64,000 nt of DNA. Origin: Escherichia coli. Lineage in GTDB: Bacteria; Pseudomonadota; Gammaproteobacteria; Enterobacterales; Enterobacteriaceae. The notes under the pieces were generated by a model, which saw only the letters and a list, made by a program, of their open reading frames with translations, did no database searches and had not been told where the DNA came from. The position numbers and the translations under genes are program-made. Location of the stretch: the NCBI RefSeq assembly GCF_013122565.1, contig NZ_CP053258.1; one strand, given 5' to 3'. How positions within the stretch are numbered: position 1 is the first letter of the stretch; each line of letters begins with the position of its first letter. This document shows positions 59,785-60,041 of this stretch, one piece after another.

Positions 59785-59872
59785 CCAGATAAGGCGTAAA
59801 CGCCTTATCTGGCCTACGTTCAGCACGTTACCCCCAGGCCGGATAAGACGCGGCAAGCGTCGCATCCGGCAA
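59785..59872. repeat. REP/BIME element
   Basis: GCCAGATAAGGCGTAAACGCCTTATCTGGC and AGGCCGGATAAGACGCGGCAAGCGTCGCATCCGGC. Confidence 0.75.
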
Positions 59873-59954
59873 TGTCTGCCCAGTTCTGGAATCGCGCTCC
59901 ATAAAACAAAAAATCCCCGTCACCATCCTCTACATTCTCTTGTTTAGCGTTGTT

Positions 59955-60041
59955 CAACGTTTATGCTACATACGAGAAGGTTTGACGCATAAAGAATACG
60001 ATTTCTTTACCGCTGTTCATCGTACTAAGGGGAAAAAATGA
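59955..60041 (+). pseudogene. higB: 3' remnant of toxin gene higB (RelE/HigB family), no start codon; upstream part replaced by REP sequence
   Basis: Frame ending TGA at 60039-60041 (ATGA overlap with higA) encodes ...QRLCYIREGLTHKEYDFFTAVHRTKGKK. It is closed by TAA at 59844-59846 with no ATG/GTG in between, and only 269 nt separate rlmG from higA. Confidence 0.55.

Follow-up and report, generated by a model that had tools for sequence, protein, structure and literature searches.

In the 64-kb stretch of Escherichia coli DNA analyzed here (the window), the interval between rlmG and fadH very probably holds the chromosomal type II toxin-antitoxin module higBA (ygjN-ygjM) in a decayed, toxin-less form. 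The alignments almost certainly reflect a single 325-bp loss of the promoter, the operators, and higB codons 1-79; as judged from its sequence, no HigB can be made from this allele. The module is preceded by rlmG, the gene of the 23S rRNA m2G1835 methyltransferase (58632-59768, + strand; a 378-aa ORF so annotated in all matching E. coli records). The antitoxin and transcriptional repressor gene higA (60038-60454, + strand) is an intact ORF of 138 codons that starts after a gap of 269 nt (rlmG end at 59768, higA start at 60038). It is convergent with fadH (60499-62517, - strand; identified as a 672-aa ORF and by annotation), from which it is separated by 44 nt, and the same 44-nt spacing occurs in K-12 (PMC5120126). 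The differences between the rlmG of the window and that of other alleles were mostly synonymous. An artificial or mutated window was ruled out, because differences from other strains in rlmG and fadH were overwhelmingly synonymous, as in natural divergence.

The window was aligned with the full-length allele of NZ_CP083585 (L002, higB at 1953-2267) and with 17 further loci; the short alleles sampled were those of the window, L001, L004, and L007-L014, including ATCC 25922. Against the full-length alleles, the alignments showed one clean gap of 325 bp (L002 1866-2190, one T being ambiguous), and its junction, ACGTTTA followed directly by TGCTACATACG, was placed at 59964..59965 of the window. 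The right breakpoint was inside higB codon 80, and the left one lay 94 nt beyond REP2, the second REP unit of the locus. The deleted part comprised the 87 nt that precede the higB ATG and higB codons 1-79. Within these 87 nt lay the only promoter-like site of the full allele, TTGCCA-16-TATCAT (10/12 with TG, L002 1894-1921), and two copies of the palindromic motif GTTGCCAATYTGTCAACGG. The GTTGCCAATYTGTCAACGG operator motif was absent from the window, where no self-regulated promoter flanked by palindromic HigA operators was found ahead of the higB remnant. Experiments in K-12 revealed only one higBA promoter, located upstream of higB and repressed by HigA (PMC2814082).

To the left of the junction, the window retained the noncoding leader of the higBA cassette (59872-59963, + strand), which aligned collinearly with L002 1774-1865 and with every other full-length allele. 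In full-length alleles this leader lies upstream of the promoter, and it was missing in the alleles with an empty rlmG-fadH site; it is untranslated sequence, not degraded coding sequence. A slipped-strand or repeat-mediated origin of the deletion was ruled out, because its endpoints shared a single T only, and the 325-bp loss has the marks of an ordinary illegitimate deletion. One such event would have removed the autoregulated higBA promoter, the two HigA operator palindromes, and the first 79 codons of higB, and would have left behind a leader of 94 nt, an untranslatable higB stub of 25 codons, and an intact higA.

The frame that precedes higA had been described in the initial annotation as encoding only the C-terminal tail of a toxin, and this description was borne out. 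Its last 25 codons, CYIREGLTHKEYDFFTAVHRTKGKK, corresponded to HigB residues 80-104 with 23/25 identical residues (92%; tblastn and BLASTP), and the pseudogene remnant of higB, consisting of codons 80-104 and the stop codon, occupied 59964-60041 (+ strand; tblastn, BLASTP, and PGAP). The frame ended in an ATGA overlap with higA (TGA at 60039-60041) and was open back to the TAA at 59844-59846. The remnant had been taken to span 59847-60041, which is too long: only 59964-60041 is derived from higB, and 59847-59963 is DNA that is also found upstream of the promoter in full-length alleles. Reference HigB is not itself a product of approximately 30 codons; it has 104 aa and is identical to PDB 5IFG_A. 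PGAP calls the same 78 nt "HigB, incomplete, missing N-terminus" in other strains (e.g., ATCC 25922), and the stub was annotated as a pseudogene in 10 short loci. NCBIfam HMMs matched neither HigA, HigB, nor the stub, so that PGAP evidently relies on different rules to name them.

In full HigB, the Pfam domain HigB_toxin (PF09907) covers residues 20-92, and the stub retained just 13 of the approximately 73 domain residues. Because the domain spans residues 20-92 and the stub only residues 80-104, the stub should be unable to fold into a toxin, and its toxicity appears structurally implausible. No full-length RelE-fold toxin gene with a start codon (HigB_toxin PF09907, approximately 104 aa) was found at the locus, and no second HigB-like stretch was found within the 64-kb window. 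Because no HigB can be made, the module would no longer be able to arrest translation.

The statement that no start codon lies between the TAA and the tail was correct for ATG and GTG, neither of which was found in the stub frame, but it overlooked a lone TTG at 59940. From this TTG a mechanical ORF of 33 aa can be read (59940-60041), and its presence is what could suggest a functional micro-protein made from the HigB C-terminus. We consider such a product highly improbable. The TTG had no Shine-Dalgarno sequence in front of it, few of the domain residues were left, and the ORF varied between short alleles. V85G and M86L (REVM to REGL) were specific to the sub-lineage of the window, L001, and L007, and three substitutions within 9 nt of the stub (window 59976-59984, CGTGAAGTTATG to CGAGAAGGTTTG) were common to these three alleles only. 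L004 (at approximately 2838) and L010 (at approximately 536) had each lost 1 nt from the A-run immediately ahead of the higA ATG; these deletions shift the frame of the ORF, shorten the spacing between the higA Shine-Dalgarno sequence and the ATG by one, and break the ATGA overlap of the stub. Both the substitutions and the A-run deletions are changes that would be expected of a dead remnant. The clustered substitutions also make a TTGACG hexamer (59982-59987), which was rejected as part of a promoter because no usable -10 follows it; we treated these substitutions as drift in a pseudogene.

The identity of the stub also bears on the direction of the change. The bare pattern of presence and absence could be produced by an ancestral short form and a later insertion that created full-length higB, and nothing beyond that pattern favored this order of events. 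The stub aligns in frame to HigB residues 80-104 at 92% identity and has the same ATGA overlap, and any insertion would need to have delivered exactly the missing promoter and operators together with 79 codons in the right frame to make a complete RelE-fold protein. An ancestral short form is effectively excluded because of the in-frame homology of the stub.

Three REP units were found at the locus. REP1 (59784-59813) is a perfect 14-bp inverted repeat that formed a 13-pair hairpin in the RNA fold and was present in full, short, and empty alleles. REP2 (59838-59870) is an inverted repeat that also formed a hairpin in the fold, and REP3 (60463-60484, identified by pattern match) lies between the convergent higA and fadH. 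Direct copies of the REP half GCGTYGCATCCGGCR, one at 59857-59871 (the 3' half of REP2) and the other at 60470-60484 (within REP3), bound the higBA cassette, which measured 613 bp in the window and 938 bp in full-length alleles. The rlmG-higA gap had been described as 269 nt consisting mostly of REP sequence; the length was right, but the REP hairpins accounted for only 63 nt of it (87 nt with the linker), which is approximately one-quarter to one-third.

The loss of most of the toxin gene had initially been attributed to a REP-associated deletion. A deletion that removed codons 1-79 did occur, and recombination or replication slippage at the REP/BIME beside rlmG might be suspected as its source, given the REP units in the rlmG-higA gap and a REP-bounded presence/absence polymorphism of 613 bp at the same locus. 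Against this origin, REP1 and REP2 were unchanged and in the same positions in full-length alleles, the breakpoints fell 94 nt past REP2 (left) and within higB (right), and these endpoints, which shared 1 nt, were neither in nor between REP units. Because the REP units are intact in full alleles, the breakpoints are off the REP units, and the microhomology is 1 nt, we regard a REP-mediated 325-bp deletion as very unlikely.

The window and the empty rlmG-fadH site (L003 and L005; a 117-nt gap, loci 2570-2688) differed by a segment of exactly 613 bp, located between the GCGTYGCATCCGGCR copies, and in the alignment both empty-site alleles parted from the window right after REP2 and rejoined it immediately after REP3. 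A REP-to-REP event at the locus would account for the empty-site allele but not for the 325-bp deletion. Either a cassette insertion or a REP-REP loss may lie behind this difference. The locus resembles the REP/BIME-bounded presence/absence polymorphisms of E. coli intergenic regions in that the whole higBA cassette between the GCGTYGCATCCGGCR copies is missing in approximately 19% of genomes; such polymorphisms explain the empty site but not the deletion in the window. The REP elements at this locus delimit the whole cassette, not the 325-bp deletion.

Allele frequencies were obtained from 5,426 complete E. coli genomes, with counts calculated as differences between BLAST coverage classes rather than by inspection of each genome. 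By this measure, higA was present in 4,376 genomes (approximately 81%) and the full-length higB region in 2,822 (approximately 52%); the 325-bp deletion, by difference, was present in approximately 1,550 (approximately 28%), and the site was empty in 1,050 (approximately 19%). The junction was identical in 11/11 sampled short alleles, which carried varied rlmG, REP1, and higA haplotypes. Because an identical junction was found on different haplotypes, the deletion very probably has a single origin, after which recombination would have carried it across many rlmG/REP/higA haplotypes. A search for the junction 18-mer in one genome per species (298 Gb) returned as its sole match a Bacteroides MAG contig without BLAST similarity to the window, with approximately nine chance matches expected; this result therefore carries no information on how the junction is distributed among species. 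A fourth allele was also observed, with full-length higBA and an IS1A in the rlmG-higA interval (NZ_AP045800.1 and NZ_AP045789.1); here the match consisted of 2,002 nt in three pieces, with an IS1 transposase annotated beneath.

This allele is already known: it is common, annotated by PGAP, and published, and it represents ordinary natural variation. An orphan higA at the fadH-rlmG site has been reported in CFT073 and NRG857c, and complete higBA in K-12 and HS (Front Microbiol 2020, PMC7232551). The arrangement in those two orphan strains, higA without higB, is that of the window (CFT073 being compared by its published description). The stubs called by PGAP, for example in ATCC 25922, comprise the same 78 nt, with an identical junction in the sampled copies. 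The window differs from them in REGL for REVM (shared with L001 and L007) and in a mosaic higA allele (T3 plus V74/E75/S111). Orphan antitoxins are reported to be abundant across E. coli sequence types, with a toxin repertoire that is reduced in phylogroups B2 and C (PMC10790755).

The antitoxin itself showed no sign of truncation. HigA of the window matched PDB 5IFG_B (Antitoxin HigA) over residues 1-138 (E = 3e-84), and Pfam HTH_3 was found at residues 84-135, the C-terminal XRE-type HTH of such antitoxins. An intact antitoxin ORF of 138 codons thus stands beside a recognizable, startless 3' remnant of its toxin gene, and the initial designation of higA as an orphan antitoxin was upheld. Compared with HigA of BL21 (K-12-type; WP_000560266.1), that of the window had four replacements (A3T, A74V, Q75E, and L111S), each of which was found in other strains too. 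HigA proteins were identical between some short and full strains, e.g., WP_000560266.1 in BL21 and ATCC 25922.

The most similar characterized system is HigB-HigA of K-12 (YgjN-YgjM; PDB 5IFG; Christensen-Dalsgaard et al. 2010, PMC2814082), with which the window shares the rlmG-fadH site, the spacing between higA and fadH, and the 138-aa HigA. The stub still shows the toxin-first gene order and the ATGA overlap. Unlike the K-12 module, the window has lost the promoter and both operators along with HigB residues 1-79, and HigA's own binding sites are gone.

A scan of 59700-60500 detected neither a sigma-70-like site nor an intrinsic terminator on the + strand. The best candidate for a new promoter at the junction, TTGTTT-16-TATGCT (59940-59967), was picked out by eye and rejected, because it had only approximately 7/12 matches and was below the threshold of the scanner. 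The higA Shine-Dalgarno sequence AAGGGG (60027-60032, + strand; read from the sequence) was retained 5 nt before the ATG, inside the higB remnant. Because neither a terminator nor a promoter-like site lies between rlmG and higA, we infer that read-through from rlmG on balance probably supplies the higA transcript. Such read-through can be attenuated by REP hairpins. Transcription of higA would then be low and unregulated, proceeding from rlmG across the REP hairpins, and HigA would now be an orphan HTH protein whose own operators are gone. Some expression of higA presumably survived the loss of the promoter, because the founder cell still had HigB protein to neutralize.

How the orphan higA is kept can be read in more than one way. 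It may be a silent relic, unexpressed and decaying neutrally, that looks intact owing to the recent age of the deletion in each lineage or to the refreshing of higA by recombination with full-length alleles; we consider this conceivable but rather unlikely. Consistent with it are the deletion of the promoter and operators with no promoter-like site left, the lack of any record of the window's exact HigA sequence in a collection of 15 billion proteins, and the approximately 19% of genomes without higA altogether. In addition, HigA of L004 carried clustered N-terminal replacements (I4L, A5S, D6N, and K13Q), and dN/dS for L004 against the window was approximately 0.8, a hint that constraint is locally relaxed.

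Other observations argue against neutral decay. All 11 sampled short alleles had a higA of 138 codons without frameshift or stop, despite a piS of 0.065 among them. The piN/piS ratio was 0.15 in short and in full alleles (18 sequences sampled). This ratio would fit continued purifying selection on higA, although the evidence is weak because much of the polymorphism is probably older than the deletion or came in from full alleles by recombination, and only 18 sequences were compared. In every short-allele record row higA had a gene name and product and no pseudogene note, and it was unflagged in the 10 short loci examined. The Shine-Dalgarno sequence was kept, with no terminator after rlmG, and a cell that lost both the promoter and the toxin gene must still have neutralized its existing HigB, which would imply residual expression of higA.

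That the orphan HigA has a selected function is possible, but we would not favor it. A specific form of this idea, which we regard as doubtful, is a domesticated HigA that is under purifying selection in more than one-quarter of E. coli, whose transcription from rlmG is constitutive and free of autoregulation, and that acts in trans. Such a HigA would serve as an anti-addiction factor, neutralizing HigB-family toxins brought in by plasmids or phages, or would act as a repressor of other targets on the chromosome. HigB-family toxins were found on 1,056 plasmid records, nearly all of them less than 60% identical. Alternatively, HigA might persist merely through refreshing by recombination with full-length alleles.

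The allele matters little in itself, being a textbook example of how a chromosomal toxin-antitoxin module decays: the toxin disappears first, and its antitoxin remains. Degraded toxin-antitoxin modules and orphan antitoxins in enterobacterial populations are described in a Klebsiella pneumoniae survey, as summarized in a review (PMC7354431), and in an E. coli survey across sequence types (PMC10790755). The likeness to these modules lies in the toxin lost first beside an intact antitoxin. Compared with these surveys, the difference is that an exact deletion, its single origin, and its frequency of approximately 28% are given here at the nucleotide level. Strains with this allele are without HigB and should not be scored as higBA-positive in antitoxin-based surveys of toxin-antitoxin modules. 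The rlmG-fadH site, with three common alleles (full, 325-bp deletion, and empty), is a natural series that bears on selection for an orphan antitoxin.

Several further features of the region were recorded. Among the 5,426 complete genomes, the best match to window 50000-64000 was only 98.4% identical over 14 kb, and the strain belongs to a lineage that this collection lacks. The fadH of the empty-site strain L003 (NZ_CP028589.2, locus 2688-4706) was only 93.9% identical to that of the window (123 differences, 108 synonymous codons), which suggests a divergent imported allele beside the empty site; fadH of L005, also an empty-site strain, was 97.6% identical. More copies of the REP half-motif that bounds the cassette were found in the fadH-ygjK intergenic region (62647-62661 and 62747-62761, - strand), which also contained a match to the Rfam family naRNA4, a REP-derived nucleoid-associated ncRNA (62700-62781, + strand; 70.4 bits). 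Elsewhere in the window, rnpB (RNase P RNA) was located at 18755-19131 (+ strand; 318.6 bits), and a short match to the ES036 sRNA at 37831-37873 (- strand) was barely over its gathering score (39.0 vs. 37.6).
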